DNA from: a virus
Strand: one strand, 5' to 3'
DNA: 64,000 nt
IMG/VR virus record: IMGVR_UViG_3300028840_008180
Coordinates: 28,083-92,082 of that record
Shown here: piece after piece, positions 4,169-18,791 of the stretch
Position numbering within the stretch: the stretch's first letter is position 1
Layout: each line of letters begins with the position of its first letter
Notes under the pieces: generated by a model
Databases searched by the model: none
What the model was told of the DNA's origin: nothing
What the model saw: the letters and a program-made list of their open reading frames with translations, nothing else
Made by a program: the position numbers and the translations under genes

Positions 4169-7100
4169 CTAACCGATCCTTCTGGTGAAGCCATTTTGCT
4201 TCTGTACCATGATGGTTCTGACACCATCAAGCATCTGTCGAAGATGGGTGTTGTGAGTAACAACAAAGACTTGTTTTTCCTTCGCCAACTCACAGATAGT
4301 TTGGTAGATGCTTCTCACTCCTCGCTGGTCGATACTGTCAGAAACCTCGTCAAGGAAAACGAGGGATGGCCATGTTCCACTAGAGAACATCATTACATGA
4401 GCAAACGCCTGGGAGATAGCTAGGTTGATCCGTTTTCGCTCACCACCACATGTGACAGAGTAGCTGTAAGCTTTGCCCTTAATAGGCTTGATGGTGGCAT
4501 CTAAATGTCCATCGAAACTGACCTCCATGCGGCCATCCATCAGGTGTTCCATCCAGTAAGCAATCCTTGCGTTCAATGCCGGTGTAATACCTTCGATGAT
4601 ATAAGAGCGAATACCATTTGGGCCGAATACTTTGATTGCATACTTGTAGTAGGGAATGATTTCTTCTGTCGCCTTTACCTTGACATCTTGATCTTCCTTC
4701 TTCTCGATGATTTCGATAAGGTCTTTGCGAGCTTGTTTCAGAATCTCTACGTAAGGACCACCATCAACTAGTTCATCCTCCTTAGCTTGAATGCTTCTTT
4801 CTGTTTGAGACAGCTTTTCCTTCAGCACCAGTTCTGTTGAGGTGAGGTCAGGTCGTTGCACGCCCCCAAGCTCTTCCAGTCGACTCTTGTCGTTTTGAAT
4901 CGATTTCTTGATTGCATTCAGTTTGATACCAGCAATCCTCTTGAGTTCAGCTAGTTTGGCTAACGTTCCTTCATACTTTGCGATCTCAAGTTTGATGCTA
5001 TCCTTCCGGACTTCATTAGCATTGATCTTTGGTTCCAAATGGTCGATCTTATTGTTGTGAAGTTTGATCACATGCTTGTAGTGTTGTTTGTTAATAGGTC
5101 CATAACAGTGCGGGCACTTGGCACCTTCGGGAAGCTTATTGAGTTTAGCGATCTCTCCCTTGCACTTCTCACGTTCCTTTATCATGTCCCGCATTTCACG
5201 ATCTAGCGATTTGTAGCTAAGTTTCAACTCGTGAATCTTCAAGGAGACCTTGTTGTGATTCTCTTTGGTTTTCTGGAGCGCCTCATCCATGTTGGTCTCT
5301 TTAACGTCCTTATCAGCCAACCCATCTTGAATCGCCACAATTTCATTTTGTGCCCCTTCGTATTCGAGCAACGCCGAGCCGATATCCGTATTTCCGATTT
5401 GACCTTTGAGGACTTCGATTTGACCTTTGAGGGTCTCAATATCTTTGAGACAGTTAGCACGCCACGCTTTGTTTTGTTGCTCAACTTGCGAAATACGATC
5501 AAGGCACGACGCTTCCGATTCCTTGATCTGTTCGTAGGCGGTCATAAGCGATTTCAATTCCGCCTCGGTTGCTTTCAACTCCTTCTTAGCGGTCTCCAAG
5601 TAGTCGTTGTAGACTTCAAGTGACAGAAGGTTCTCGGCAATCGCTCGCTGCTCTTTTGAATCACACTCCAGAAAGTTGTATTCGTTGTGCTGTCCAAAGC
5701 AGACGACGTTCACAAATGCTTTGTGATTCATCTTGAGGATTTCTTCAATTCGCTTCTGCGTGGGTATCTGCCCACCACGACTATCCTCGTTGTTGTTCTT
5801 GGCTGGAGCATCAATCCATGGTGGGCCTCCTTGCCACAATCGGACAGTGTCGGGTTGTCGGGTGCGGACAATCCGGTACCGTACATCGTCGATGCTGAAG
5901 ATGATCTCAACCTCAAGCTTCTTACCTGTCCGGTTGTGGATGGCATCTGTATGCTTAACCTTCTTCCTAATGGTGTTACCATACAAACCGTAGACAACCA
6001 TTTCGGCTATGGTGGAGTTATGTACAACAGTAAAATCGGCCAAGAGAAACAAGTGGTTACCGTCAGTTTGGAAACCATAGTAATTTCCGGTGCCTATTGG
6101 TTGTACCGAAATACCTACCGTTAGCGGGTCTTTGGATTTAGATGTAGGTTGACAAGTTTTACGTGGTACTCTGGTTGGTATTTTTGAACAGTCGCCGCCA
6201 ATATGAACTCGCCAGTAAGTTCCGGTTGCTCCCGTTTGACATTTTTTTTGACATTCTTTGGGGTAAGCTGAGAAGCCTAATGATCTAGCGAGGTAAGCGA
6301 CATCAAATACTAACTTCTTGTTCTTATTTACAAACTCGAAACAGCCGCCGTTAAGGTGCCCATCCGAGTCCATGAGTCCAGCTAAAAGCTCCAAACGTAC
6401 TTGTCTTGAATTAGCCTTGTATTGTAAGGGCACATGTTTGTTGTCTATTAGCTGGTAAGACTTAAGGTCTTTTAGTAAAGAGTTACAATTACGTGGGAAG
6501 CAATCTTTGGGTGATGTGGCTTTATGCTCCATTTGAAGCCATTTACGAACTCTGTCTATCGACCGCCACACAGCGGCAACACTCGGTTTCTCCTCTTGGT
6601 ACCTAGAACAGTACTTCGGATATGATTTTCCAGCCTTCGTGGCAATTTCACTATAACACGCACCATTGAGATGTTGGTTGTAAATGAAAAACTCCGGAGG
6701 GTCGGGGCGAGCATCTAAATTATCACTATGAATGGCTAGGTGCGGAACATCTTTTGAGTTCTTAAATTCACGAACTTGTAAGTTGCGTGATGCTGCCTCG
6801 GTCTTCACCACTTCGTGTACCACCGAGTCAATGTTTGTAATAATGGTTCCGGTCGAATTTCCGTCCCCCAACCAAATACCCAAAAAATACGGATCGATTC
6901 TTATTGGAGCCTTAGGAAAATCTACTGCTGTTCTGTAACCGCCCATTAAGTGCTTAAACGTCTTTGATTGTTTGAGGTAATCCTTGACGCTGATATTGAA
7001 TATTGAAGAGTCCTCTTTGCTTGCGAATTTCGATTTGCTATACCGGTTGTACTTTTTGTCCTTAGTTTTCAACGTTAATATATGAGATTCGTTCACTACA

Positions 7101-7465
7101 TACGAGTCTCCTTTGTTAGGAATGACCCGGTATAGTGGTTCTCGACCACGAGCTAACTTAAGCACTTTGCGGGGTGACGAATCATTTCCCATCACCTCAT
7201 CGCCCACGACTATATCCTCTACCTTTTTGATAGTTCCATCATACATTAAGATGGGTGTGCCCTTACCAAAACATTTCCCCGCAGCATTCGAGTGGTACTC
7301 ATTGCCTGATTCGCTACACTCAAGTTCGTCCCACTCATCTTCATCGTGTAGGTCGAGATTACGACCTTTGATAAGAACGATGTTACCCAGTTCTGTGAAA
7401 TTTATTTCGATAGGTTCTTCGCCGATGCAAAAGAAGTTCTTTGCACGGATGTATTCAATTCTCAT
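4169..7465 (-). CDS. Rad50/SbcC-like recombination ATPase (T4 gp46-like), intein-containing
   Basis: Walker A NAAGK|ST split by an intein, Q-loop FGQ, coiled coil with CPHC zinc hook, CGGE signature, FLDE Walker B, VTH H-loop. Confidence 0.93.
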   Translation of the reverse strand: MRIEYIRAKNFFCIGEEPIEINFTELGNIVLIKGRNLDLHDEDEWDELECSESGNEYHSNAAGKCFGKGTPILMYDGTIKKVEDIVVGDEVMGNDSSPRKVLKLARGREPLYRVIPNKGDSYVVNESHILTLKTKDKKYNRYSKSKFASKEDSSIFNISVKDYLKQSKTFKHLMGGYRTAVDFPKAPIRIDPYFLGIWLGDGNSTGTIITNIDSVVHEVVKTEAASRNLQVREFKNSKDVPHLAIHSDNLDARPDPPEFFIYNQHLNGACYSEIATKAGKSYPKYCSRYQEEKPSVAAVWRSIDRVRKWLQMEHKATSPKDCFPRNCNSLLKDLKSYQLIDNKHVPLQYKANSRQVRLELLAGLMDSDGHLNGGCFEFVNKNKKLVFDVAYLARSLGFSAYPKECQKKCQTGATGTYWRVHIGGDCSKIPTRVPRKTCQPTSKSKDPLTVGISVQPIGTGNYYGFQTDGNHLFLLADFTVVHNSTIAEMVVYGLYGNTIRKKVKHTDAIHNRTGKKLEVEIIFSIDDVRYRIVRTRQPDTVRLWQGGPPWIDAPAKNNNEDSRGGQIPTQKRIEEILKMNHKAFVNVVCFGQHNEYNFLECDSKEQRAIAENLLSLEVYNDYLETAKKELKATEAELKSLMTAYEQIKESEASCLDRISQVEQQNKAWRANCLKDIETLKGQIEVLKGQIGNTDIGSALLEYEGAQNEIVAIQDGLADKDVKETNMDEALQKTKENHNKVSLKIHELKLSYKSLDREMRDMIKEREKCKGEIAKLNKLPEGAKCPHCYGPINKQHYKHVIKLHNNKIDHLEPKINANEVRKDSIKLEIAKYEGTLAKLAELKRIAGIKLNAIKKSIQNDKSRLEELGGVQRPDLTSTELVLKEKLSQTERSIQAKEDELVDGGPYVEILKQARKDLIEIIEKKEDQDVKVKATEEIIPYYKYAIKVFGPNGIRSYIIEGITPALNARIAYWMEHLMDGRMEVSFDGHLDATIKPIKGKAYSYSVTCGGERKRINLAISQAFAHVMMFSSGTWPSLVFLDEVSDSIDQRGVRSIYQTICELAKEKQVFVVTHNTHLRQMLDGVRTIMVQKQNGFTRRIG
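6017..7273 (-). mobile_element. intein (419 aa) with LAGLIDADG homing endonuclease
   Basis: Starts CFGKGT, has block B VNESH, LAGLIDADG-type LGIWLGDG and LAGLMDSDG, ends VVHN followed by Ser+1. Confidence 0.95.
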
Positions 7466-8541
7466 TCAACTTGACTCTTTTCGCAAATGTTCTTCAAAGT
7501 TGCCAGTAACTTATCAAAGTCAAGTCCTTTTGGAACTCCCTTCTCTTTGATGTATTCTTCTAGCATTTCTTCTTGGCCGCACGCAACAATGCGTTGTACG
7601 TCCTCAATCTTGTGCCTCGTTTTTACATCCTCTTTTCCCTTGGGTGAAGAAAACTCGAATGTGAGGATGTTGTGACTCTCCATCAAATCCTTTTTGAGGT
7701 CAACAAGATTTGTTGCAGAGATATCCTTTGGTTCCAACTTGATGAACGTGTTATCAAGGTCAAACGTCTCAAGTTCACTCTCCTTGACGATGAGATGCTT
7801 TGGTGAAAAGTCGTTGATCACATAATCCGTCTCTAACGTTTCTGTGTCCAACAATACCAAGTGCTTCTCTTGGAAGGCTTCTGCGAAATTGATCTCTAGT
7901 GGAGACCCAACATATTCGATGTTGTCGATTCGTTGGGCAGCGTGGTAGTGACCGAGGAAAACTCGTCTCCACGGTCGGAACTTCTCCGCATCAACATTCA
8001 CCATGTCTCCCTCATATTCCACTGACACATCTGCGTGTGTTTTGTAGAACGTATTCAACTGGGCTCCGTGCAATGCAATGTGACCGCACAATACAGGAGA
8101 CTGGCTATATGCGAAATGCTCTAGTTCGTCGAGGGGATTCAACGTGAATGGTAGGAAGTCAATGTCCAGACCTTCAATGTTGATCGTTTCACATTTAGTG
8201 ATGATGTTAACGTTGGGGATCGATCCGAGAGGGATGATGCTACTGATGTCAAGCTTGTCAGCGAACCACATATCATGGTTGCCGATTAACATGTGAAGCT
8301 TGAGAGGGGACCCTTCTTCGCCAACATACTTTTTGATGATTTCGTACGTGCGTTGATAAGGTAAGACCTGAATCTTTTCACGGTCTTGAAAAAGGTCACC
8401 AAGAAAGATGATGTGATGCGCTTCTTTTTCGAGCGCAGTTTCAAAAACCCATTTCAGAGCATCGAGACAGTGCTGCAAACGTCTGAGACTGTCTTTGTGT
8501 GCGGCAACATGAATGTCACCTGTCAGTAAAACCTTTGCCAT
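7462..8541 (-). CDS. Mre11/SbcD-like nuclease (T4 gp47-like)
   Basis: DIH, GDLF, GNHD and GHYH metallophosphoesterase motifs; overlaps the gp46-like start. Confidence 0.92.
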   Translation of the reverse strand: MAKVLLTGDIHVAAHKDSLRRLQHCLDALKWVFETALEKEAHHIIFLGDLFQDREKIQVLPYQRTYEIIKKYVGEEGSPLKLHMLIGNHDMWFADKLDISSIIPLGSIPNVNIITKCETINIEGLDIDFLPFTLNPLDELEHFAYSQSPVLCGHIALHGAQLNTFYKTHADVSVEYEGDMVNVDAEKFRPWRRVFLGHYHAAQRIDNIEYVGSPLEINFAEAFQEKHLVLLDTETLETDYVINDFSPKHLIVKESELETFDLDNTFIKLEPKDISATNLVDLKKDLMESHNILTFEFSSPKGKEDVKTRHKIEDVQRIVACGQEEMLEEYIKEKGVPKGLDFDKLLATLKNICEKSQVE

Positions 8542-9080
8542 TAGAATCCTGGGCCAATACCTGGAGGTCCACCCATCCCAGGTCCTGCCGCAGGTCCGCC
8601 CATCGGGGCAGGTCCCATCGGTGCTCCACCCATCGGCGGTGCGCCGGGCGGTGTTGGCGGTGGTGCCATACCCGGCTGCTCTGCACCAGGGGCAGGAGCT
8701 TGGGGAGGAGGAGTTTCTCCACTATCTTTAGTATCGGCAATAGGCTCCCCAGACAATAGTTTTTCTAACAAAGACCAGACATCTTTTGCATTGAGTTCTT
8801 GCTGTGGTGCTGCGGCCTGTCCTGGGGCCCCAGGAGGCCCGCCTAAGCCCGGTCCACCAAGCGGAGGTCCACCTAGTCCGCCGCCGCCCATTGGCGGTGG
8901 AGGGCCTCCTAAGCCGCCTAATGGCCTTCCTCCAAGACCACCACCCATTGGTTTCGGTCCACCAAGTCCTCCCGGTGGTGCGCCAGGGGGTGGTAAAGGA
9001 GCGCCAGCACCAAGACCCCCCGGAGGAGGTCCGCCTAGCGGCTGTTCGTTGATCTGTTTTATGAACGCTTTGAATCGCAT
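8541..9080 (-). CDS. Gly/Pro-rich protein with capsid-targeting-like N-terminus
   Basis: Starts MRFKAFIKQINE, 4 nt after TATATA; low-complexity G/P body. Confidence 0.7.
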   Translation of the reverse strand: MRFKAFIKQINEQPLGGPPPGGLGAGAPLPPPGAPPGGLGGPKPMGGGLGGRPLGGLGGPPPPMGGGGLGGPPLGGPGLGGPPGAPGQAAAPQQELNAKDVWSLLEKLLSGEPIADTKDSGETPPPQAPAPGAEQPGMAPPPTPPGAPPMGGAPMGPAPMGGPAAGPGMGGPPGIGPGF

Positions 9081-9251
9081 GTCGTATATATGCAAAGAAT
9101 TTTCGATATTCGAGCGAACATTTTGGGTCCGAGGAGCGTCTATGATAGTACTCCGGTGTAAAAGTGCGACAACTGACGGTTGTCTTAACATCGAGAGGAA
9201 AAATACTTCCCGGCGTTCCAGTGGGATGTCGGGCCAAAAATGAGGAATACG

Positions 9252-9332
9252 ATGAGAACTCTATTGTCCAGTTTGTTTAGTCTCAGCCTGTTATCATCGC
9301 TCTATAGCGATGGAATTGGAGGGTCTGTCTAA
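9252..9332 (+). CDS. attenuator leader peptide MRTLLSSLFSLSLLSSLYSDGIGGSV
   Basis: GAGGA RBS at 9242-9246; codons 4-19 are exclusively Leu/Ser/Phe/Tyr; immediately upstream of an intrinsic terminator. Confidence 0.85.
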   Translation: MRTLLSSLFSLSLLSSLYSDGIGGSV

Positions 9333-9400
9333 GCAGTCTTGGACATACGGGGAACAAAAAACCCCTTCGGCCCTCTCAGGAGAGCCGAAGGGGTTTTTTT
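9265..9400 (+). promoter_or_regulatory. ribosome-dependent transcription attenuator (protector/antiterminator/terminator)
   Basis: 1:2 pairs TGTCCA/TGGACA, TGTTTAG/CTAAGCA and CATCGCT/AGCGATG; 2:3 pairs GGAGGGTC(9318-9325)/GGCCCTCT(9369-9376) and GGGG/CCCC; 3:4 terminator. Confidence 0.8.
9356..9400 (+). terminator. intrinsic terminator of the attenuator
   Basis: AAAAAACCCCTTCGGC...GCCGAAGGGG followed by T7. Confidence 0.92.
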
Positions 9401-9509
9401 ATTGGTGTGATATGAAGCCGAAAGCGACAAAACCGAAGCGAAAGCGAAAAAAGAAGTCGTTGGATCACAAAGAGGCTGCGGAGACAGCCGATTGGTCGGC
9501 AGACAAAAA

Positions 9510-9583
9510 GGTACGGTAGCTCAGTCCGGTAGAGCACTTGGTTGAAGCCCAGGGTGTCGTCGGTTCAATTCCGACCCGTGCCA
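9510..9583 (+). tRNA. tRNA-Phe(GAA)
   Basis: Cloverleaf GGTACGG/CCGTGCC; anticodon loop TTGAAGC; T-loop TTCAATT. Confidence 0.93.
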
Positions 9584-9661
9584 CTTGCGGGAATGCCCGA
9601 AGGGATTACATTTCCAGAAAAGATGGTGACAGTCTCTTCATTGTTTTGTCCCGCACAAGTT

Positions 9662-9674
9662 TGATCTTTGACAA
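9662..9674 (+). promoter_or_regulatory. rrn-type boxA antitermination element
   Basis: TGATCTTTGACAA matches the boxA consensus (G[A/C/T]TCTTT[G/A]A[C/A]A); lies between tRNA genes and is flanked by hairpins. Confidence 0.65.
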
Positions 9675-9733
9675 TTTGGTAAACTCAGTGATCTTCGTGC
9701 CAAATCCAGGGCGTGCGAAAGTGCGCCCTATTT

Positions 9734-9815
9734 GGGTCGGCATCCCATTGGTGAGGGAAGCAGTCTGTAAAACTGTGGTCTAACGACTTTGGTGGTTCAA
9801 TTCCACCCCGGCCCA
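9734..9815 (+). tRNA. tRNA-Tyr(GTA)
   Basis: GGGTCGG/CCGGCCC; loop CTGTAAA; long variable arm. Confidence 0.93.
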
Positions 9816-9821
9816 CTTAAG

Positions 9822-10187
9822 CTATGATTGATCGGCTTGCCACGGCATGCCGGTGTATTTGGCAAACTCCTCATCGGACATTTGGTCACCCAGCTTGGTC
9901 GGATTGTAGCCGAGGGACTTGAGACGCCACATTTCGGCCTCTACGTCTTCGGCACCATGACGGGCCATATCGTCCCAGTGAAGTGTTTTGAGTTCGGGAG
10001 ATTCGCTAGCGTTCATTACGTCGCCGCCGAAATCGTCTGCTGCGTTGTGAAGCTGGTACTCGGGTGGGGGAACATCACCAAGAGAGCGATTTGTTTGATC
10101 TACGGTGTTTATCTCACCGGTGTTATCATCCGGCTCCGAGTCGGACTGATTTTCCATTCGGTCGTGGTAACTTTGAAAACTGAACAT
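9822..10187 (-). CDS. acidic hypothetical protein
   Basis: ORF starting 5 nt after TATATA; MFSFQSY N-terminus. Confidence 0.65.
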   Translation of the reverse strand: MFSFQSYHDRMENQSDSEPDDNTGEINTVDQTNRSLGDVPPPEYQLHNAADDFGGDVMNASESPELKTLHWDDMARHGAEDVEAEMWRLKSLGYNPTKLGDQMSDEEFAKYTGMPWQADQS

Positions 10188-10222
10188 GGGGGTATATAGC
10201 TGCTAGCTCGATAAATAGATCG

Positions 10223-10822
10223 ATGCGATACAGCCAATTTGGACAAGATGAGTGGGTTCTGAAGACCATCCCTGATGGGAAGTACTTCGTGGATATCGGC
10301 GCAGGCGACGGCATTAGATTCAGCAACACGTTTGCCCTTGAGCGGGCCGGTTGGAAAGGTATCTGCGTCGAACCCCACTTGGCACAATACAGAAAGCTGC
10401 GGCAAAACAGGAGATGCCACCGGTGCCGCTACGCAGTAGCGGCACGAAGCAACACGATGGTGCCCTTTTGGGAAGGCTTGGGTGGCCTCAACGGACTGTC
10501 GGGAATAGTGGGATATTTTCAAGATGACCATCGGCGAAACCCATCAAAGGGCCGAATAGTAGCCAGGAAGACAATATCGCTGGTTGATCTTTTGAAGAAG
10601 TTCGGCGCACCTGAGGCAATCGACTATCTAAGCATCGACACAGAGAACTCTGAATACATGATCTTGAAGGCTTTCGATTTCTCATACACCTTCAAGAGTA
10701 TCACGATTGAGCACAACAACCTCGAAAAGAAGCGTGAGGCAACGAAGAGGTTGCTCGAATCTCACGGTTACAAACGAGTTGGTATACTTGAGGTCGACGA
10801 CCTATATCTTTACGATCACTAG
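10223..10822 (+). CDS. FkbM-family methyltransferase
   Basis: YSQFGQD, FVDIGAGDG, SNT, GWKGICVEP, IDYLSIDTE. Confidence 0.9.
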   Translation: MRYSQFGQDEWVLKTIPDGKYFVDIGAGDGIRFSNTFALERAGWKGICVEPHLAQYRKLRQNRRCHRCRYAVAARSNTMVPFWEGLGGLNGLSGIVGYFQDDHRRNPSKGRIVARKTISLVDLLKKFGAPEAIDYLSIDTENSEYMILKAFDFSYTFKSITIEHNNLEKKREATKRLLESHGYKRVGILEVDDLYLYDH

Positions 10823-10904
10823 GCCCTGTGGTGGAATGCTAGACACGGCTGGCTTAAACCCAGTTGCCCGTATGGGCGTGCAGGTTGGAATCCTGCCAGG
10901 GCTA
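10822..10904 (+). tRNA. tRNA-Leu(TAA)
   Basis: GGCCCTG/CAGGGCT; loop CTTAAAC; long variable arm; atypical T-loop TTGGAAT. Confidence 0.9.
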
Positions 10905-11035
10905 CTTGTTTTCACACGAAATCACTAACGAAAGGAGAAACACTCGGTTCCTGATGCTCTGGCGGCTGCGTAGGCCGAAAAGATCAGAGATTGGGCAGAC
11001 GGGCCGATTCACCCCCAACACTGTTGGAGGTTATC

Positions 11036-12205
11036 ATGAGCGAGAAAACTCATGTAAACGTCGGTACCATCGGTCACATCGACCATGGTAAAACAACTCT
11101 TACGGCTGCGATCTTGGCGGTCCAGGCAAGTAAGGGTCTAGCAATTAAGGTTCCCTATGGCAAGATTGCTACTGGCGGAATCGTCCGTGACGATCAGAAG
11201 GTTGTTACGGTAATCACGAGTCACGTTGAGTATGAGACAGAGGACAGGCATTACGCCCATATCGACTGTCCAGGCCACGCAGATTACGTCAAGAACATGA
11301 TCACGGGTGCGGCCCAGATGGACGGGGCAATTTTGCTCGTCTCTGCCGCAGATGGGCCGGAACCCCAGACTCGGGAACACGTTCTGTTGGCAAGACAGGT
11401 CGACGTTCCGAACATCGTTGTCTTCCTGAACAAGTGCGATCTTGTGGAGGACGAGGAATTGATCGAACTGGTCGAGTTGGAAGTCAGAGACCTGTTGACC
11501 GAGTACGGATTCGATGGCGACAATGCCACGGTTGTCCGAGGTAACGCCAAGGGCGCAATGGATGACCCAGAGAACCAGGGTGAGTGCATCACAGAGTTGA
11601 TGAACGCCTTGGGCAAGAACATCCCAGAGCCAATCCGGCAACTCGACAAGCCGTTTATGATGGCTATTGAAGGAGTCTACTCCATCGTTGGCCGAGGAAC
11701 GGTAGTCACTGGTAAGATCGAGCAGGGCAAAGTACAGCCCGGTGATAAGGTGGAGGTCGTAGGTCTGCAAGATAGATCAGAAACGGTCTGCACAAGCATC
11801 GAGCAGTTCAACAAGCAACTGCCTGAAGGGAAAGCTGGTCAGAATGTTGGATGCCTGCTTCGGGGTGTCAAGCATGACGAGGTCCAGCGAGGGCAAGTGC
11901 TGTCGGCTATCAACGCCATACAGCCCTACACTCGATTCAAGGCAGAGACCTATGTTCTGGGTAAGGAAGAGGGCGGAAGGCATACACCGTTCTTCGGTGG
12001 TTACAAGCCCCAGTTCTTCTTCCGAACAACAGACGTGACAGGCATAGTCAATCTGGTGGACGCCGAAATGGTGATGCCAGGAGACCATGTTACGGTAGAA
12101 GTTGAGCTAGATAAACCCGTTGCCCTTTACAAGGGGAACAGATTCGCTGTCCGTGAGGGCGGCAGGACGGTTGGCTCCGGTCGTGTGATCGAAGTCCTAG
12201 CGTGA
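11036..12205 (+). CDS. tuf: elongation factor Tu
   Basis: [53 protein letters not shown]; GGAGG RBS. Confidence 0.98.
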
Positions 12206-12238
12206 GATTACGAGCCTTAGCTTCGGCTAGGGCTCTAC

Positions 12239-12327
12239 GGAAGCGAGGCAAATAATGGTTCGTTGCGGCACTCTGCTAAAGTGTTCCGGGGTAACAGCCG
12301 GTGCTGGTTCAATTCCAGTCGCTTCCG
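12239..12327 (+). tRNA. tRNA-Ser(GCT)
   Basis: GGAAGCG/CGCTTCC, G73; loop CTGCTAA; long variable arm. Confidence 0.9.
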
Positions 12328-12331
12328 CTTT

Positions 12332-12413
12332 GGATAGGATGGTGGTTGGCTCACCAAACGGTCCCGAAAACTGTACCTCGTAAGAGGCCAGAGTTCGATT
12401 CTCTGCCTATCCG
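12332..12413 (+). tRNA. tRNA-Ser(CGA), atypical (C33)
   Basis: GGATAGG/CCTATCC, G73; loop CCCGAAA; long variable arm. Confidence 0.75.
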
Positions 12414-12418
12414 CTTAC

Positions 12419-12502
12419 GGAAGTGATCCGGCTGGATGAGGAGCGAATTTTGAAAGTTCGTGGGTGTAAAAAGCCTTTAGGGTTCGAGTCCCTACGCTTC
12501 CG
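12419..12502 (+). tRNA. tRNA-Ser(TGA)
   Basis: GGAAGTG/CGCTTCC, G73; loop TTTGAAA. Confidence 0.88.
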
Positions 12503-12513
12503 CTTGGAGGAAA

Positions 12514-12687
12514 ATGGAACTAGAAGAACACAAAAAAATGCTAATCAAGAACGTTGAGTGTCTTAGAGACAAGTGGCACCGTGTCGATATGGGTCACAAC
12601 AAGATGATCGAAAACATCAAAAAAGCCCAAGCTCTCGAAGAGCTACAAGCTATCGAAACGATTTACAGTACTTGGTTAGATGCTTAG
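12514..12687 (+). CDS. 57-aa hypothetical protein, paralog of the next ORF
   Basis: Not in the ORF track. GGAGG RBS; MELEEHKKMLIKNVECLRDKWHRVDMGHNKMIENIK...WLDA. Confidence 0.75.
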   Translation: MELEEHKKMLIKNVECLRDKWHRVDMGHNKMIENIKKAQALEELQAIETIYSTWLDA

Positions 12688-12694
12688 GAGGAAC

Positions 12695-12868
12695 ATGACA
12701 TTTGAAGAGGATAAGAAGCCGCTGATCGATTTGATTACATGGTATCGAGACAAATGGCATAAGGGTGACTTCGGTCACACTGAAATGATCGAGAAGATCA
12801 AGGAAACCGACGATCCGAAATTACTGGAATTGTATTGGAAGATTACGGATGGTTGGTTAGATTACTAA
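12695..12868 (+). CDS. 57-aa hypothetical protein
   Basis: GGAGG RBS; shares RDKWH.GH..MIE.IK...WLD with the previous ORF. Confidence 0.75.
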   Translation: MTFEEDKKPLIDLITWYRDKWHKGDFGHTEMIEKIKETDDPKLLELYWKITDGWLDY

Positions 12869-12869
12869 T

Positions 12870-12955
12870 GGCCTCGTGCCGGAACAAGGTAGACGGACCA
12901 GACTGAGATTCTGGGGAGCGTTACGCTCGTGCAGGTTCGATTCCTGTCGAGGCCA
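12870..12955 (+). tRNA. tRNA-Leu(GAG)
   Basis: GGCCTCG/CGAGGCC; loop CTGAGAT; long variable arm. Confidence 0.92.
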
Positions 12956-12960
12956 CTTAT

Positions 12961-13040
12961 GGCGGTGTACGCAAAATGGTAAAGCGGCAGTACTCAAAAT
13001 GCTGTGATGTTGTTTGTCGGTTCGAGTCCGACCACCGCTA
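12961..13040 (+). tRNA. tRNA-Leu(CAA)
   Basis: GGCGGTG/CACCGCT; loop CTCAAAA. Confidence 0.88.
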
Positions 13041-13044
13041 CTTT

Positions 13045-13119
13045 GGCGAGGTAGCCCAATAGGTAGAAGGCGGTAGTTTCAAGAACTACAGGTTGCGGGT
13101 TCGACTCCCGCCCTCGCTA
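13045..13119 (+). tRNA. tRNA-Leu(CAA), short variable loop
   Basis: GGCGAGG/CCTCGCT; loop TTCAAGA; variable loop AGGTT. Confidence 0.85.
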
Positions 13120-13124
13120 CTCAC

Positions 13125-13199
13125 GCCGGGGTAGCCCAACTGGCAGAAGGCGCATGATTTAGGATCATGAGGTTGAGGGTTCGACTCCCTCCCCCGGTA
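13125..13199 (+). tRNA. tRNA-Leu(TAG), short variable loop
   Basis: GCCGGGG/CCCCGGT; loop TTTAGGA; variable loop AGGTT. Confidence 0.85.
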
Positions 13200-13204
13200 C
13201 TTAT

Positions 13205-13290
13205 GGCCTTGTGTCGGAATAGGTAGACGAGTGGCGCTCAGACCGCCATGGGTGTAATTGCCCGTGCAGGTTCGATTCCTGTCAAGGCCA
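13205..13290 (+). tRNA. tRNA-Leu(CAG)
   Basis: GGCCTTG/CAAGGCC; loop CTCAGAC; long variable arm. Confidence 0.92.
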
Positions 13291-13292
13291 CT

Positions 13293-13712
13293 TTATCGTT
13301 TGATAGGAATAGCCCACGGAGTTTCTGGGATTTCTTCAGCGGCAGCAAGAGCGTCTTCAACGGCTTGTCGCATGTCGGGGCCGATGCCCTTCATGACCCA
13401 TTCCTTTTTGCTTGGGTCAGCTTTGATTCGCTTGACGTACTCCGCTACTTTGTCTCGTTTGATAGGAATAGCCCACGGAGTTTCTGGGATTTCTTCAGCG
13501 GCAGCAAGAGCGTCTTCAACGGCTTGTCGCATGGCGGGGCCTAAGCCCTGCATGACCCATTCCTTTTTGCTTGGGTCAGCTTTGATTCGCTTGACGTACT
13601 CCGCTACTTTGTCTCGTGCTCCAGCAGCGATGCCCGCACCCATGTCTCCAAATGCTCCTTTGATATCCCCGTAGCTGCGAGTTTCTAACCATTCATTGAA
13701 TGAGCGTCTCAT
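13293..13712 (-). CDS. hypothetical protein with a 53-aa tandem duplication and capsid-targeting-like N-terminus
   Basis: MRRSFNEWLE start with GGAGG RBS and upstream TATATA. Confidence 0.75.
   Translation of the reverse strand: MRRSFNEWLETRSYGDIKGAFGDMGAGIAAGARDKVAEYVKRIKADPSKKEWVMQGLGPAMRQAVEDALAAAEEIPETPWAIPIKRDKVAEYVKRIKADPSKKEWVMKGIGPDMRQAVEDALAAAEEIPETPWAIPIKR
13296..13617. repeat. 159-bp near-perfect tandem duplication
   Basis: Copies start at 13296 and 13455. Confidence 0.95.
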
Positions 13713-13749
13713 TTCATACCTCCACGGTATATATGGCCTTGCGTCGGGA

Positions 13750-14319
13750 TTAGTAGTACCTGAAATCATTCGCATGCCTCTTGCGAATGATTTCTTTCAA
13801 CTGAGGTGTGAGAAGTTTTTTGAATATCGCTGATCGGGTTGTATTCTTTCTCCTAATCGCCTTAGGTGGTGGTAACCCAATACGTTTGAAGACCTGGGGG
13901 ATGGCATCTTCTATGTTCTCCAAACGTATGACAACATCAACAAGCGATCTCCCCTGCTTATCACATGTGAAAGCTTTGATGTCTACGAAGTGCTTGTAAC
14001 GCTTATTGCGAACATAGGTGTCGAAATCACACCGGGCGGACGCCATGTTTCGCTTTTTCTCAAAAGCGAAACATGACAGAATGCGGTCGAAGGGGTTTCG
14101 GATCGTTGTAAAGACGAAATAGTCGCCCCATCTCCGTCCGGTTTTCTCAATAAATTGCTTTACCTTGTAGGCAGCATCGTGCCGACCCACCGGTTTTGCC
14201 CGCAAACCCTGGTCGTAGACCCGACATTTATAGGCTCGAAAGTGCGAGTGCAGGCTGCTAGAGCCGCATTTCTGATTGGCCAGAAAGATGAACTTGTGAG
14301 TGTGAGATATAACGGTCAT
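13750..14319 (-). CDS. sulfotransferase family 2 protein
   Basis: KFIF..QKCGSSS (5'-PSB-like), TIRNPFDRILS (3'-PB), IRLEN, C-terminal D..F.Y. Confidence 0.8.
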   Translation of the reverse strand: MTVISHTHKFIFLANQKCGSSSLHSHFRAYKCRVYDQGLRAKPVGRHDAAYKVKQFIEKTGRRWGDYFVFTTIRNPFDRILSCFAFEKKRNMASARCDFDTYVRNKRYKHFVDIKAFTCDKQGRSLVDVVIRLENIEDAIPQVFKRIGLPPPKAIRRKNTTRSAIFKKLLTPQLKEIIRKRHANDFRYY

Positions 14320-14379
14320 ATCAGTATTTACCCCAGACGGCATATCCGTTAGGATATTAAGGGGTAAAAGGAGGATGGT

Positions 14380-14772
14380 ATGATCATCAAAGAAGTCGAA
14401 GTCGTCATCAATGTGGAATACGGAGGTTTCTCTCTTGATACAGAGATGGCCCTCTGGTTGATGGAGAACAAGGGGTGGACGAGCACAAACGTCGACAGTG
14501 GTGAGGATGAGACCGAGTTCGATTTGATATCACTCGGTGATATGTTCCTCCGCTCGAAGAAATACGACGAGGTCGGGTTCAGAATGAACCCCGACCTCGT
14601 CGAGTGCGTTAAAACCCTCCAAAAGAAACACGAAGGTACGAATTGGTCTGGTGTTGCATACAACGACATCCCAAAGGTCTTGCAATTAAATGTCGTTCAT
14701 GTAGAGGTTCACCTTACCGTCGAGCCTGTGTATGACGGCATTGAGAATATAGCATGTTGGTCCAAGATGTAG
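14380..14772 (+). CDS. hypothetical phage protein
   Basis: GGAGG RBS; VVINxxYGGFSL N-terminus. Confidence 0.75.
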   Translation: MIIKEVEVVINVEYGGFSLDTEMALWLMENKGWTSTNVDSGEDETEFDLISLGDMFLRSKKYDEVGFRMNPDLVECVKTLQKKHEGTNWSGVAYNDIPKVLQLNVVHVEVHLTVEPVYDGIENIACWSKM

Positions 14773-14855
14773 CCAGGATGACGGAATTGGTAGACGACAA
14801 TCGCTTAGAACGATTGGTCCGTAAGGGCGTGCGAGTTCGAGTCTCGCTCCTGGCA
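14772..14855 (+). tRNA. tRNA-Leu(TAG)
   Basis: GCCAGGA/TCCTGGC; loop CTTAGAA; long variable arm. Confidence 0.92.
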
Positions 14856-14859
14856 CTTA

Positions 14860-15000
14860 CTAGATAAACCCGAATACTCTGAGAAATACAAGGGTACTGA
14901 ATAAAGCTGCTGCGGCTGAACCAATGGTTCGGATTAGTTCCATTGTGTGGTTGTGCTTGTTCAACCACGTCTCGACTCGATTTCTACGATGGTCTGTCAT
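14860..15000 (-). CDS. 46-aa membrane peptide
   Basis: AGGAGG RBS; MTDHRRNRVETWLNKHNHTMELIRTIGSAAAALFSTLVFLRVFGFI. Confidence 0.65.
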   Translation of the reverse strand: MTDHRRNRVETWLNKHNHTMELIRTIGSAAAALFSTLVFLRVFGFI

Positions 15001-15064
15001 AAACACCTCCTACTAGTATTATACTGTCGTTGTTAATAAAACTTAAGGGTGCAAGGAGAGGGAA

Positions 15065-15487
15065 ATGTCAGTGAAGAAGATTACGGTAAAGAGATTGGAG
15101 TGGTCGGAACTGAAGGATAGTCAAAGACATCGAATCAGGAAAAAGGTCGCTCGCCACGCTTCTGAAGTACAGGCTAAGCACAACTACATGAAGCGACTGA
15201 AGCGATCCCGAACAACCAGTGATGCTCCCTATGTACTTCTTCCTAAGAGTGTGATCAAGCCGAAGAACGGCTTTTGGGTTGTCTGGCGGCGGTTAGGCAC
15301 CGAGGCTGTTGTCACTCGTCGGACATTGGTTCACAAGGTGACGTGGGAGTTATACGGCCCACGGGAGAATGGTGTCCGATTTGTTCTAAAGGCACCCTTT
15401 CCAGTGAATGTCACCTGTACTCAGGATAGGAAGGTTTGGGAGGATTTTGCCGCTTCGTTGTCGGTAGGTCATCGATTGGGAAACTAG
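15065..15487 (+). CDS. basic hypothetical protein
   Basis: ORF with RBS. Confidence 0.65.
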   Translation: MSVKKITVKRLEWSELKDSQRHRIRKKVARHASEVQAKHNYMKRLKRSRTTSDAPYVLLPKSVIKPKNGFWVVWRRLGTEAVVTRRTLVHKVTWELYGPRENGVRFVLKAPFPVNVTCTQDRKVWEDFAASLSVGHRLGN

Positions 15488-15498
15488 CGAATTTACGC

Positions 15499-15526
15499 TA
15501 AAGTCTCGTAAACTATCTGCCGATAC
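15499..15526 (+). promoter_or_regulatory. sigma28-like promoter
   Basis: TAAAGTCT...GCCGATAC with TAAA-N16-GCCGAT spacing. Confidence 0.8.
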
Positions 15527-15545
15527 AAGCGATAGGAGAAAAGTT

Positions 15546-15830
15546 ATGGGAATACCAGCTTACGGAGACGTACTGACTCGTAAAGTGACTTTGCCCAACA
15601 AGCAAGTCCTGAGTATCGGTGTTTTGACAGCCCATGTTGGGGTCGGCGCAGTGCCGGAATTGACGGTCTCACTTCAAGACGAAGGTGGAATTGCTACCGC
15701 TTCACTGAAGACCGCCCTCAATTCAACCAATGATCTTCGATACGTTGCCAACATGTTGAATCAGGTGGCAACACGTATCGATCAGGTCAACGAAGAGGCC
15801 AAGGACGATTACTACGAAGAAGATGAGTGA
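15546..15830 (+). CDS. hypothetical protein
   Basis: ORF with AGGAG RBS. Confidence 0.7.
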   Translation: MGIPAYGDVLTRKVTLPNKQVLSIGVLTAHVGVGAVPELTVSLQDEGGIATASLKTALNSTNDLRYVANMLNQVATRIDQVNEEAKDDYYEEDE

Positions 15831-16043
15831 TCCCAATAGCGACAATACTGACAGTACTTGCTATAGTACCACGTCTGTCGCTTACAAATTGGGCAAATAC
15901 GTGTCCTGTCAGCGATCCGTTTTGCACGTCGTCGTAGTAGTATCCGTTTAAGCCACCGGAGCATTGGGCATCTCAGCCTTCATTGCTATCTATAATCGGC
16001 ACAAGAAAGTGAAACGGAGTAGAAGAAAAACGTTAGGAAATAC

Positions 16044-16127
16044 GGAATCGAAGCGAATTGGCTAAGCAGCCTATCTCGAAAGTAGGTGCGGGTAACACCG
16101 TTGGGAGTTCGAGTCTCCCCGATTCCG
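16044..16127 (+). tRNA. tRNA-Ser(CGA)
   Basis: GGAATCG/CGATTCC, G73; loop CTCGAAA. Confidence 0.88.
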
Positions 16128-16175
16128 CTTAAAGGTTAAGGTGAGATTGGTAGGAAATTATCGGGAGAATGAAAA

Positions 16176-16316
16176 ATGGAATGGCTTGGTAATTGGATCG
16201 CCGCTTGGTTAGACATGATCTGTGGTTTCATCTCGGTGGTTACCTTGTGCATCTGGCGTCCGTGGTGGGATTTCCAGTTTCGTGCGTATTGGGCAAATAA
16301 AATACTCCGGAAGTGA
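16176..16316 (+). CDS. 46-aa Trp-rich hydrophobic peptide
   Basis: MEWLGNWIAAWLDMICGFISVVTLCIWRPWWDFQF...; overlaps the 5' end of the next tRNA. Confidence 0.45.
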   Translation: MEWLGNWIAAWLDMICGFISVVTLCIWRPWWDFQFRAYWANKILRK

Positions 16317-16388
16317 AGCGAATGGTTAGCAAGCCGGTTGGAAGCCGGTCGCCCTCACGGGTTGCAGGTTCGACTCCTGTCACTTCCG
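16309..16388 (+). tRNA. tRNA-Ser(GGA)
   Basis: GGAAGTG/CACTTCC, G73; loop TTGGAAG. Confidence 0.88.
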
Positions 16389-16400
16389 CTTATGATCTCC

Positions 16401-16793
16401 ATGAAAGGCAATTTGAAGTACAGTGATATCGCTGCGGGGCACCGCCCGCAAGCGGCGGTCTATCTCCCTAAAGAATTTGGAGACTACTACCGTGCGTTGG
16501 TACCTAAAGCGAAGGACATACAACCACAAACCTACCCTCCGCACGTTACCGTTGTGAGGACTGGGCTTGAGACGCCGCCAAACATGGAGCCGTGGGGAAA
16601 GTACGAAGGTGAAATCATTGAGTTTACCTACAACCCAGTGGTAGTGACAGACGGTATGTACTACTACTTGGATGTAGAATCGGAAAGGATCGCCGAAATC
16701 CGAAAGGAGTTAGGGCTTCCACGCTACCGTTTCGGCGATAACAAGAAGTACCACATTACGATTGGGAATGTCAAACATCATGCCACTTCCTAA
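16401..16793 (+). CDS. 2H phosphoesterase superfamily protein
   Basis: Two HxT motifs (PHVTV, YHITI) at typical spacing. Confidence 0.8.
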   Translation: MKGNLKYSDIAAGHRPQAAVYLPKEFGDYYRALVPKAKDIQPQTYPPHVTVVRTGLETPPNMEPWGKYEGEIIEFTYNPVVVTDGMYYYLDVESERIAEIRKELGLPRYRFGDNKKYHITIGNVKHHATS

Positions 16794-17112
16794 AGCATGT
16801 GACCGAGCCACCCAGGACCTGATTGTGGACTTGTACGAAAACTACGAGTACCCAATCCAGACCATCTCTAAAATGACGGACGTATCGAGATACTATGTCC
16901 GCCAAGTCTTAGACCAACGACGTGTTGAGCGTCGACCGCAAGCAAGCTGGCTTCGCACCTCTAAAGAGCGAGAGGACGAGGTTGTGCGACTCTATGTTGA
17001 AGAGCGGCTACCGATGCGTCTCGTGGGAGAGGAACTGTCGATGTCTGATTTCACAGTTCAGAGAGTTCTAAAACGTCGAAACGTTCAGACCCGCAAACGG
17101 AAAGACTACTGA
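16780..17112 (+). CDS. tandem helix-turn-helix protein
   Basis: Two repeats of V.LY......I....vS...V..VL....V..R. Confidence 0.75.
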   Translation: MPLPKACDRATQDLIVDLYENYEYPIQTISKMTDVSRYYVRQVLDQRRVERRPQASWLRTSKEREDEVVRLYVEERLPMRLVGEELSMSDFTVQRVLKRRNVQTRKRKDY

Positions 17113-17117
17113 GTGTT

Positions 17118-17501
17118 TTACTTGTAGAACCTTGAGTTCCCGTTGCTGTCGATCTCCCAATGGATTCCGAACTTGTTCTCCAGGTCCGAAACCATGTCTG
17201 ACCGAGCTTTCCGGAGGGCGGGGATAACGTAGCGACCGTAGACATTATCCATTGCCTTGTACTCACCTATCGTCTGGGTTATTTGCCGGATCATCCGGAT
17301 GAATTGACTGGGGTCAATCTCAAAATTCTCTCCCATTACCCTAACGACGGCTGTGGATCGTCTTACCTCTACCATTTGCGTCCGTTGCTCGATCACGACG
17401 GGTGGCGTCTGTTTTGCGGGCGCAGGTACGGGCGCACGAGTGGATTTTGCCGTGTCTTTGAGTTGCCAGCGTGGCGACGGTATCATGTTTCCGCTACTCA
17501 T
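17118..17501 (-). CDS. hypothetical protein
   Basis: AAGGAG RBS; sigma28-like promoter at 17523-17550. Confidence 0.7.
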   Translation of the reverse strand: MSSGNMIPSPRWQLKDTAKSTRAPVPAPAKQTPPVVIEQRTQMVEVRRSTAVVRVMGENFEIDPSQFIRMIRQITQTIGEYKAMDNVYGRYVIPALRKARSDMVSDLENKFGIHWEIDSNGNSRFYK

Positions 17502-17522
17502 GACGTTATCTCCTTTATCTTG

Positions 17523-17622
17523 GTATCGGCATTATAGCTGCTTTTCTTTAGTTCGTAAATGTCAAATGTGTTAGGCAGGGTGTGAGAAATTCGCTCAAGT
17601 TTCCCATGTTAGATGTCGATAC
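17523..17622. promoter_or_regulatory. divergent pair of sigma28-like promoters
   Basis: Minus TAAA-N16-GCCGATAC (17550-17523); plus TCAA-N16-GTCGATAC (17595-17622). Confidence 0.75.
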
Positions 17623-17720
17623 CATTATTAGGGCCCAAAACATGGGCGATTTGCCTCCTGTGATCAGCCCGCCCCCGAAATTGCAGCACCGGGGGCGGGC
17701 TAAAGGGTATAGGAAGAACA

Positions 17721-18068
17721 ATGGAAGAAGACAGAATAATATGCGACGAACTGGCTTTGGACCTCATGATCAACATGGAGTTACCGAGGCGAGAAAGGAA
17801 AAAGAAGGCAAAAAGGCGTTTCAGCAGGGCTCCGAGGGTAGCGGCGGTGATGTCTTCGCATTCGTCTGTAGAGACGGTAACAAGTGAGTGGCCTGACACC
17901 ATAGATCACTTCGAGACACAGAAAGCTCTAATAAGAGAACTAGATCGGGCGGCAATGGAATTATCGGAAGCAGAGCGGAAGTTAGATGTGCAGAAGCCGC
18001 AAAAGGTATCGGGCTTCAAGAAATTCAAATCAGGCTTCAAAAAGATCAAATCAAATCGAGCGTCTTGA
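17721..18068 (+). CDS. hypothetical protein
   Basis: ORF with AGGA RBS after a GC hairpin (about 17666-17701). Confidence 0.6.
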   Translation: MEEDRIICDELALDLMINMELPRRERKKKAKRRFSRAPRVAAVMSSHSSVETVTSEWPDTIDHFETQKALIRELDRAAMELSEAERKLDVQKPQKVSGFKKFKSGFKKIKSNRAS

Positions 18069-18507
18069 AAAGGAGTCGCCTCTCAAGTGGACCTAATGGT
18101 TTACCGTTAAGGTCTTTAAGTTGGTAGAATAGGAATGAATCTGTGCCGGTGTCTACCATTTCATAGAACTTTGAGTCAACGGCATTGTCCCATGTTGGGG
18201 TAGCTGGATGTAGCCGAAGGTCCGCTACTTTCTCATCGAACTCACGGAATGTCCATTCTTTTTCATCAACGACGATCTGTTTGTTAGGTGACCAATACTC
18301 TGACTTTGTCTTTAGAAATGGCACATCCTTCTCAAGCATGTTAAAGATGAAAGTCATGTCATGACCTTGCTCTTTAAGGTAGTTGGCTAGAGCGGTGGTG
18401 TGCTCCCACACATCACGCTCGTTACTTGCCTCCTTCACACCTTGAACCAACCCTCGGATCGTTTCGGGTACGGTGCCGTAGACTTCTAGCCACTGTTTGA
18501 ATCTCAC
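18046..18507 (-). CDS. hypothetical protein with capsid-targeting-like N-terminus
   Basis: MRFKQWLE. Confidence 0.7.
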   Translation of the reverse strand: MRFKQWLEVYGTVPETIRGLVQGVKEASNERDVWEHTTALANYLKEQGHDMTFIFNMLEKDVPFLKTKSEYWSPNKQIVVDEKEWTFREFDEKVADLRLHPATPTWDNAVDSKFYEMVDTGTDSFLFYQLKDLNGKPLGPLERRLLFKTLDLI

Positions 18508-18719
18508 ACGAACTCCGCAGCCTCTTCAGGTTCTAGGTACATGTCTGTCCGAGAGTCGTAGTACTTACCCTCTTTGGGGTCGTAGTAGACTACTCTTCCG
18601 TTCTTCATTCTGAATGGCCCTTCCAAACCGGGCCTCTCTGGATACTCTTCGGGGTCAATAGGCGGCATCGCTTGCCAGTCTTCTTTCATTTGGACCCATT
18701 TGATGAATTTGATATGCAT
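18504..18719 (-). CDS. small hypothetical phage protein
   Basis: GLEGPF...YYDPKEGKYYD motif; GGGAG RBS; upstream TAGATA. Confidence 0.7.
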   Translation of the reverse strand: MHIKFIKWVQMKEDWQAMPPIDPEEYPERPGLEGPFRMKNGRVVYYDPKEGKYYDSRTDMYLEPEEAAEFV

Positions 18720-18791
18720 AAGCACTCCCTTCTTCGACAAGCTATCTATGACGTTTGGGTTCCAATATACTCTCCATCGCCATATATATCC

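Follow-up and report, generated by a model that had tools for sequence, protein, structure and literature searches.

The window analysed here, a stretch of 64,000 nucleotides (nt), spans bases 28083-92082 of one virus record, 92,082 bp long (IMG/VR record IMGVR_UViG_3300028840_008180). It is a fragment of a large phage, with genes for ribonucleotide reductase, several helicases, a primase, a DNA polymerase, DnaB and UvsX, and it carries an array of transfer RNA (tRNA) genes for leucine, serine, phenylalanine and tyrosine (Leu, Ser, Phe and Tyr, together L/S/F/Y) in which a gene for elongation factor Tu (EF-Tu) is embedded. Our subject is the short open reading frame (ORF) that precedes this array, together with its unusual codon tract and the terminator that separates it from the first tRNA gene. 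A preliminary description of this DNA had proposed that these elements form an attenuator whose leader peptide samples exactly the tRNAs supplied by the downstream array.

Leader ORF, codon tract and alternative folds

The leader unit occupies a divergent intergenic region, in which the leader is the sole plus-strand frame that could need termination. Its parts are the following:

9141-9148, plus strand: candidate extended -10 box TATGATAG, a tentative promoter of the leader
9242-9246, plus strand: Shine-Dalgarno (SD) sequence GAGGA, 5 nt upstream of the ATG, read directly from the DNA
9252-9332, plus strand: leader ORF of 26 codons plus TAA (ATG at 9252, TAA at 9330-9332)
9261-9308, plus strand: putative sensor tract, codons 4-19, with 7 Leu, 7 Ser, 1 Phe and 1 Tyr
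9265-9345, plus strand: predicted 1:2 hairpin (anti-antiterminator), which would sequester segment 2 as long as the tract is free of ribosomes
9318-9376, plus strand: predicted antiterminator, a three-way junction that forms in folds with the tract masked
9356-9400, plus strand: intrinsic terminator with a 14-bp GC-rich stem (9362-9375:9380-9393), an A/U extension and seven T

The ribosome-binding site and the 26-codon frame read as they had been described. The tract encodes LLSSLFSLSLLSSLYS and uses 12 distinct codons among its 16. It is the longest run of L/S/F/Y codons in the six frames of the 92,082-bp contig, the runner-up having 10, and at the measured frequency of such codons (0.258) about 5e-5 runs of at least 16 would be expected in the contig. 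The 14 tRNA genes downstream correspond to 11 anticodons, enough to read every Leu, Ser, Phe and Tyr codon, and codon reading together with the tRNA calls confirmed that all 11 are represented in the tract; the chance that 16 L/S/F/Y codons cover all 11 anticodon classes is about 0.01. The codon choice of the leader is atypical for the genes of this phage (codon-usage score of -33 per 100 codons, versus +14 to +48 for well-supported neighbouring genes). The first tRNA gene follows on the same strand, 178 nt from the leader.

The leader region folds much better than shuffled controls (z = -5.0). Both the 1:2 hairpin and the terminator of the preliminary description appear in the minimum-free-energy fold, and the 2:3 pairing that it had drawn forms once the tract is masked. 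The predicted antiterminator is made of an outer helix (9318-9325:9369-9376), a stop-codon hairpin (9326-9333:9338-9345) and the pairing of GGGG 9349-9352 with CCCC 9362-9365. The terminator, which lies 110 nt 5' of tRNA-Phe, is the sole strong plus-strand terminator within 8000-19000.

In constraint folding, ribosome-covered RNA was masked and only the RNA transcribed when the left arm of the terminator emerges was included. With a ribosome held in the tract, an antiterminator of -24 to -26 kcal/mol formed in silico; with a ribosome at the stop codon, only the GGGG:CCCC helix of -6 kcal/mol remained; and with no ribosome, segment 2 was taken by the 1:2 hairpin and the antiterminator was absent. 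The modelled probability of 1:2 pairing was 0.98 without a ribosome and 0 with a ribosome across most of the tract. When the stall was scanned codon by codon, the antiterminator probability reached 0.74-1.0 at nine of the ten codons with the A-site at 9264-9291 (0.40 at 9270), ranged from 0.03 to 0.73 at the tract edges, and fell to about 0 for a ribosome at the start codon or at 9309 and beyond, as well as in ribosome-free RNA. The modelled sensing window thus coincides with the tract. These folds support the core of the earlier proposal, namely a translated, codon-matched leader in trp-type geometry.

Matched leaders in related jumbo phages

The EF-Tu of the window is 60-68% identical to EF-Tu encoded in tRNA clusters of IMG/VR jumbo phages, on contigs of 49 to 533 kb. 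Below, L-numbers denote IMG/VR relative loci and G-numbers relative genomes. In L024-L032 and L056, EF-Tu lies within a cluster of almost only Leu, Ser, Phe and Tyr tRNAs, and nine distinct IMG/VR loci possess a leader and terminator unit just 5' of such an L/S/F/Y tRNA and EF-Tu cluster. The homologous leaders are located as follows:

L024:4024-4107, homologous leader
L025:6908-6982, homologous leader (L026 is identical)
L027:587-670, homologous leader
L028 near 2614-2697, homologous leader
L029:6292-6372, homologous leader
L030:2323-2403, homologous leader
L031:4634-4714, homologous leader (L032 is identical)
L056:792-866, homologous leader

No leader was seen in L042 and L048. In the relatives, the unit consists of an SD sequence, an ATG or GTG, an L/S/F/Y tract sampling 9-11 of the 11 anticodon classes, a stop codon, GGGG, an A-rich spacer and a strong terminator. 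Homologous loci, to which the preliminary description had pointed as a possible refutation, keep the codon tract alongside their tRNAs. The three-way-junction topology of the window's antiterminator is also predicted in L024, L027, L030 and L031. For most loci, a generic profile of upstream pairing by the left arm carried no information; the expected drop showed only in L024, L031 and L056. In most relatives, the leader is preceded at 25-50 nt by a sigma70-like promoter (CTTGAA, about 17 nt, TACTATAA); the TATGATAG box of the window, one of just two TAYNATAN motifs on the plus strand of 8501-17500, resembles the TACTATAA and TACCATAG boxes found at that distance in the relatives.

Strong folding and the conservation of the hairpins and the terminator are also what one would expect of an untranslated structured RNA (for example one that marks a site of processing, binds a protein or binds tRNA in the manner of a riboswitch) in which the open frame is a by-product. 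We find this scarcely credible, since all nine homologous loci have an SD sequence and a start codon, and since the frame and the residue set are kept despite high nucleotide divergence. Between L024 and L031, which are closely related, the leaders show exchanges of Ser and Leu and a single indel, which is a whole codon and preserves the frame. In addition, no Rfam family matched the unit at E <= 1, and 8500-18000 gave no match, at the gathering score or at E <= 1, to the Rfam families Leu_leader, His_leader, Thr_leader, Trp_leader, Phe_leader and T-box.

Between loci, residue order in the leader peptides is free and only membership of the four-residue set is kept. This absence of a conserved tract sequence makes it very improbable that the product of the ORF is a small hydrophobic peptide with a function, that its gene simply has a terminator of its own, and that the tRNAs are transcribed independently with an incidental codon match. 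Such a peptide, Leu/Ser-rich and possibly amphipathic, would account for a terminator that simply ends a tiny gene and for the semi-conserved G-x-G-C-[VI] pattern in the leader tail of the relatives. However, the last codons of the leader complement the left arm of their own terminator: GGCTGC faces GCAGCC in six loci, and the window tail GGAGGGTC complements the window's own, different arm GGCCCTC. The semi-conserved Gly-Gly-Cys tail is thus explained by the pairing of GGCTGC with GCAGCC, a constraint acting on the RNA. Codon choice in the tract is moreover maximally diverse, not optimal, and the leaders of other tRNA blocks are chemically quite different, yet matched to their own tRNAs.

Blocks other than L/S/F/Y are found in G003 (533 kb) and G004 (436 kb), two complete or near-complete genomes with about 60 tRNAs each and the L/S/F/Y genes in a separate cluster, and in G001. 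G004 possesses three leader and terminator units, each at the head of its own tRNA block. The leaders of blocks other than L/S/F/Y are the following:

L063:5335-5421, G004 leader 2, with its terminator at L063:5483-5519, before Asn, Lys, Ile, His, Gln, Arg, Cys and Gly tRNAs
L064:4850-4960, G004 leader 3, with its terminator at L064:5030-5062, before Met, Pro, Gly, Asp, Thr, Glu, Val and Ala tRNAs
L073:17450-17587, G001 leader, heading a block for the 16 non-L/S/F/Y amino acids

The three G004 leaders sample 11/11, 11/11 and 16/17 of the anticodons of their own block and only 2-6 of those of the other blocks, so that the leader-by-operon matrix is diagonal. The G001 leader contains codons for all 16 other amino acids and one for Phe, with no Leu, Ser or Tyr codon. 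The preliminary description had suggested looking for leaders that co-vary with the anticodon sets of other clusters, and the other tRNA blocks of the relatives indeed have leaders matched to their own anticodons. With thresholds chosen after the leaders had been seen, leader-like windows occurred 1-3 times in a 507-kb six-frame background, and six of eight matches were leaders. When short ORFs were scored genome-wide by a crude scheme, the true leaders came out on top in two of five stretches, and leaders whose frame is open far upstream were missed.

The co-variation between leader and tRNA block is hard to square with a functional peptide, an untranslated RNA or chance. A terminator that on paper functions on both strands, with the minus-strand gene 9822-10187 pointing toward it, would suit a chance open frame beside a bidirectional terminator placed between transcription units that diverge and converge. 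The probability of this is practically negligible, because the joint probability of run, coverage and position is far below 1e-6 and because the arrangement recurs in nine independent loci and, with matched codons, before other tRNA blocks.

Some further observations concern the relatives and the distribution of the locus. Two codons of G004 leader 2 are TGG (Trp), but the parts of G004 that were analysed yielded no tRNA-Trp(CCA), and the only candidate reader of these codons is a TCA-anticodon tRNA of the third block. This tRNA and a further one with anticodon CTA are located at G004 191389-191459 and about 219242-219319 (minus strand), and a suppressor-like tRNA of 91 nt with anticodon CTA lies inside the L/S/F/Y cluster of G003 (L027 7227-7317). 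Such suppressor-like tRNAs may point to stop-codon read-through or recoding. Directly 3' of the attenuator or first tRNA, three relatives have a conserved gene of about 99 codons that is S24-peptidase-like by eye (L024 4292-4588, L027 from 768 and L030 from 2501); it is absent from the window contig.

Searches beyond the EF-Tu relatives were largely negative. An IMG/VR search with the pattern GGCTGC...GGGG...CCCCGGCAGC returned only contigs already known through EF-Tu, plus 64 chance matches, and a metagenome pattern search for terminators resembling that of the window found nothing. Among GenBank phages, DNA searches with 8500-17000 (near) and 9150-9520 (distant) gave just a 56-nt tRNA-Phe match or none, and tblastn with EF-Tu returned bacterial-type EF-Tu only, at no more than 61% identity and in contaminated or prophage records, so that no cultured relative was found there. 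DNA of the window is present in metagenomes from sediment and seawater, and no RNA run is listed as containing it; in contigs from three DNA runs aligned to 8600-13400, two of which are possibly the source sample, the leader is invariant.

The tRNA array and the genes around it

ARAGORN detects 13 tRNAs, all for Phe, Tyr, Leu or Ser, both in the window and in the whole contig. The preliminary description had counted 14; the additional one, Ser(TGA), is a real but weak tRNA with a degenerate cloverleaf, recovered by ARAGORN at a relaxed threshold only and scoring 27 bits against the Rfam tRNA-Sec model. The window has an L/S/F/Y block of mostly long-variable-arm tRNAs with its own EF-Tu. The start of the latter, previously placed at 10991, is corrected to 11036. 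The array comprises:

9510-9584, plus strand: tRNA-Phe(GAA), called by ARAGORN
9662-9674, plus strand: boxA-like element TGATCTTTGACAA, a candidate site of Nus-type processive antitermination
9734-9816, plus strand: tRNA-Tyr(GTA), with a long variable arm (bacterial type)
9822-10187, minus strand: probable gene of 121 codons, no family match, coding score +30 versus +12 for the opposite frame
10223-10822, plus strand: FkbM-type methyltransferase (Pfam PF05050, E = 2e-15)
10822-10905, plus strand: tRNA-Leu(TAA)
11036-12205, plus strand: EF-Tu gene (Pfam GTP_EFTU, D2 and D3 domains), with a GGAGG SD sequence at 11027-11031
12239-12328, plus strand: tRNA-Ser(GCT)
12332-12414, plus strand: tRNA-Ser(CGA), first copy
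12419-12503, plus strand: tRNA-Ser(TGA), weak
12870-13291, plus strand: five tRNA-Leu (GAG, CAA, CAA of 76 nt, TAG of 76 nt, CAG)
13293-14343, minus strand: two genes, for a 160-residue protein of unknown function and a 197-residue sulfotransferase (Pfam PF03567, E = 3e-12), from Pfam and coding scores
14772-14856, plus strand: tRNA-Leu(TAG), second copy
14994-15022: sigma70-like site, a candidate promoter before the last Ser tRNAs
15499-15524, plus strand: sigma28-like motif (TAAA, 16 nt, GCCGAT), a candidate internal promoter before ORF 15546-15830 and the last two Ser tRNAs
16044-16128, plus strand: tRNA-Ser(CGA), second copy
16309-16389, plus strand: tRNA-Ser(GGA), the sole gene for its anticodon

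The plus-strand genes fall into three segments, with no plus-strand terminator between them. Segment A comprises the leader, tRNA-Phe and tRNA-Tyr; segment B the methyltransferase, Leu(TAA), EF-Tu, three Ser tRNAs, two small paralogous ORFs and five Leu tRNAs; and segment C an ORF, Leu(TAG), further ORFs, Ser(CGA) and Ser(GGA). As 14 of the 16 codons of the tract are for Leu and Ser, the tract would make sense only if segment B is under its control. The boxA-like element TGATCTTTGACAA matches 11 of 13 positions of the Escherichia coli boxA consensus (TGCTCTTTAACAA-like). The 20-mer that contains it is identical in the L/S/F/Y operon of G004 (L029 7640), with a variant in L025 (7555), in every case on the operon strand; when one mismatch is allowed, the count in the window is not above chance. 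The site suggests, from its sequence, a processive antitermination that would carry the polymerase through a long untranslated transcript.

Several other features of the array can be recorded. Two of its Leu tRNAs, 13045-13120 (CAA) and 13125-13200 (TAG), are only 76 nt long, without the long variable arm usual in bacterial tRNA-Leu, and each has a normal long-arm counterpart of identical anticodon next to it or close by; G004 has four short Leu tRNAs of the same sort (L029 9334-9810). The small paralogous ORFs 12514-12687 and 12680-12868 (57 and 62 codons), between the Ser and Leu tRNAs, have high coding scores and no family match. The best IMG/VR relatives of the FkbM methyltransferase at 10223-10822 (38-47% identity) are mostly contigs of giant-virus metagenome-assembled genomes, not phages, and their 22 loci have no syntenic tRNA cluster, only one unrelated tRNA-Ile. 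A second copy of the sigma28-like motif (TAAA, 16 nt, GCCGAT) is found at 17550 on the minus strand. On the other side of the leader, an SbcCD-like pair on the minus strand ends at 8541; its SbcC/Rad50-like gene (4169-7465, minus strand) contains a Hint domain and a LAGLIDADG homing-endonuclease domain, which indicates an intein. A protein of 216 residues encoded in the neighbourhood had a single weak match in IMG/VR.

Probable attenuation of a tRNA operon and its place among known systems

Our analysis combines sequence anatomy, statistical rarity, in silico alternative folds, conservation and co-variation with the tRNA content of the relatives. On this basis, we regard it as highly probable that the unit in the window is a ribosome-mediated leader-peptide transcription attenuator heading a phage tRNA and EF-Tu operon. 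From the same data we infer that the leader is translated, that termination and read-through take place in vivo, how far the controlled transcript extends and which physiological condition acts as trigger.

In the proposed mechanism, transcription would begin 5' of 9252 and a ribosome would load onto the leader. If all Leu, Ser, Phe and Tyr isoacceptors are charged and plentiful, this ribosome should reach the TAA at 9330 and cover about 9318-9344, including the 5' strand of the antiterminator; the terminator (9362-9393 and the T run) would then form and transcription would stop before tRNA-Phe. If any sampled codon is slow, the ribosome would stall within 9261-9308 and keep segment 1 from segment 2. 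Segment 2 (9318-9345 and GGGG 9349-9352) would then pair with the left arm of the terminator, and the polymerase would read into tRNA-Phe and tRNA-Tyr and on to the methyltransferase, EF-Tu and the Ser and Leu tRNAs, probably aided by the boxA-like site at 9662. The resulting tRNAs and EF-Tu would restore the decoding speed at the tract codons. As this is the very quantity measured, the unit would behave as a negative-feedback controller of ternary-complex supply.

Several observations weigh against this interpretation or limit its reach. The array, which the preliminary description had taken for an unbroken plus-strand unit, is broken up by genes that probably lie on the minus strand, at 9822-10187 and 13293-14343. 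The candidate promoters at 14994-15022 and 15499 may drive the last Ser tRNAs independently, and leader control may cover only part of the 14 tRNAs, Ser(GGA) being located in the last segment. The terminator is symmetrical and also reads on the minus strand, where it could end gene 9822-10187. The TATGATAG box has a poor -35 and is about 105 nt from the leader ATG, and the promoter search upstream of the window leader gave no convincing candidate. In the stall model, the codons of the tract are unequal as sensors, the antiterminator probability being low (0.03-0.44) at 9258-9261, 9270, 9294-9300 and 9306. The terminator is the most stable fold at equilibrium in every case, so the switch would have to be kinetic, as in trp. 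Among the relatives, base-pair covariation is underpowered (seven sequences, about three helix types), and a cross-duplex energy matrix did not separate cognate from non-cognate antiterminator pairings, all arms being G-rich against C-rich. Finally, neither a leader nor a strong terminator is obvious where the non-L/S/F/Y block of G003 begins (L066-L072, genome positions 145 to about 55000), which means that the device is not universal.

The attenuator could also be real and have a more specific natural trigger, a host anti-phage tRNA nuclease, in which case it would be an inducible counter-defence replacing cleaved isoacceptors, as the preliminary description had envisaged. Phage tRNAs are able to replace tRNAs cut by anticodon nucleases; a design with one codon per isoacceptor would detect the loss of any single species, and odd tRNAs such as the 76-nt class-I-like Leu tRNAs might escape a nuclease. 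We consider this unlikely, though worth keeping in mind. No link to any defence system appears in the window or the relatives, and the sensor would be blind to the difference between cleavage, low abundance, poor charging and high codon demand. Furthermore, the relatives apply the design to all 20 amino acids, which fits a general control of supply better than a response to one nuclease.

It is rather likely, in our opinion, that jumbo phages split the genetic code into tRNA blocks, each governed by a separate ribosome-read sensor in which every isoacceptor of the block is sampled once or twice. Together, the leaders would provide modular feedback, in which the supply of aminoacyl-tRNA/EF-Tu ternary complex is measured codon by codon and only the deficient block is topped up; this could occur during host shut-off, codon-usage mismatch or an attack on tRNAs. 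If true, the translation apparatus would be regulated by a new logic, in which decoding speed at the codons of each isoacceptor feeds back on the same tRNAs and on EF-Tu, and the classic attenuator would find here a natural extension to multiple inputs. Such a system would account for the sorting of tRNAs by amino acid in large phages and give a handle on when and why phages express tRNAs, whether in response to codon demand, host shut-off or anti-tRNA defence. The units would also be compact parts (about 150 nt) reporting the availability of defined tRNA sets. Because the SD sequence and the intrinsic terminator are ordinary, the device should be open to study in E. coli or in reconstituted translation even though the phage is uncultured.

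Full-text searches of the literature retrieved no report of a codon-matched leader and terminator before phage tRNA arrays, nor any account of tRNA genes controlled by leader-peptide attenuation, whether in phages or in other organisms. As far as we know, bacterial tRNA genes are regulated at their promoters, by growth rate and the stringent response. Large sets of phage-encoded tRNAs, comparable to the array described here, are familiar from T4, T5, KVP40 and huge phages, and have been proposed to compensate codon usage or the loss of host tRNAs. The association of tRNA genes with an EF-Tu gene is likewise reminiscent of the tufB operon of E. coli (thrU-tyrU-glyT-thrT-tufB), where the two kinds of gene share a transcript. 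That operon is regulated at its promoter by growth rate and the stringent response, and we know of no leader-peptide attenuator in it.

T-box riboswitches resemble the window unit in that tRNA status is sensed and a terminator/antiterminator switch lies 5' of translation-related genes. However, they are untranslated and bind one uncharged tRNA through a specifier codon and the T-box motif, whereas here sensing would occur through the translating ribosome and concern many tRNAs. Closer in its target is pheM of the E. coli pheST operon, where a translation gene is subject to attenuation and its product increases the level of charged tRNA. In contrast to pheM, which senses Phe only and yields a synthetase, the window unit would sense four amino acids through 11 anticodons and yield tRNAs and EF-Tu.

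The nearest systems by mechanism are the multivalent leaders thrL (Thr and Ile) and ilvL/ivbL (Leu, Val and Ile), along with trpL, hisL, leuL and pheL. Like the trp, his, leu, phe, thr and ilv attenuators, the window has a short, presumably translated ORF rich in regulatory codons, 1:2, 2:3 and 3:4 hairpins and an intrinsic terminator, and as in the enterobacterial attenuators the position of the ribosome decides, a stall leading, here in silico, to read-through. Unlike the enterobacterial leaders, the tract mixes codons for four amino acids and includes nearly every synonymous codon once or twice, by which it would sample isoacceptors. All the structural features of a trp-type attenuator that we looked for are thus found in the sequence or its predicted folds. 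The departure is in the kind of genes that appear to be regulated: phage tRNAs, an FkbM methyltransferase and EF-Tu in place of biosynthesis or synthetase genes.

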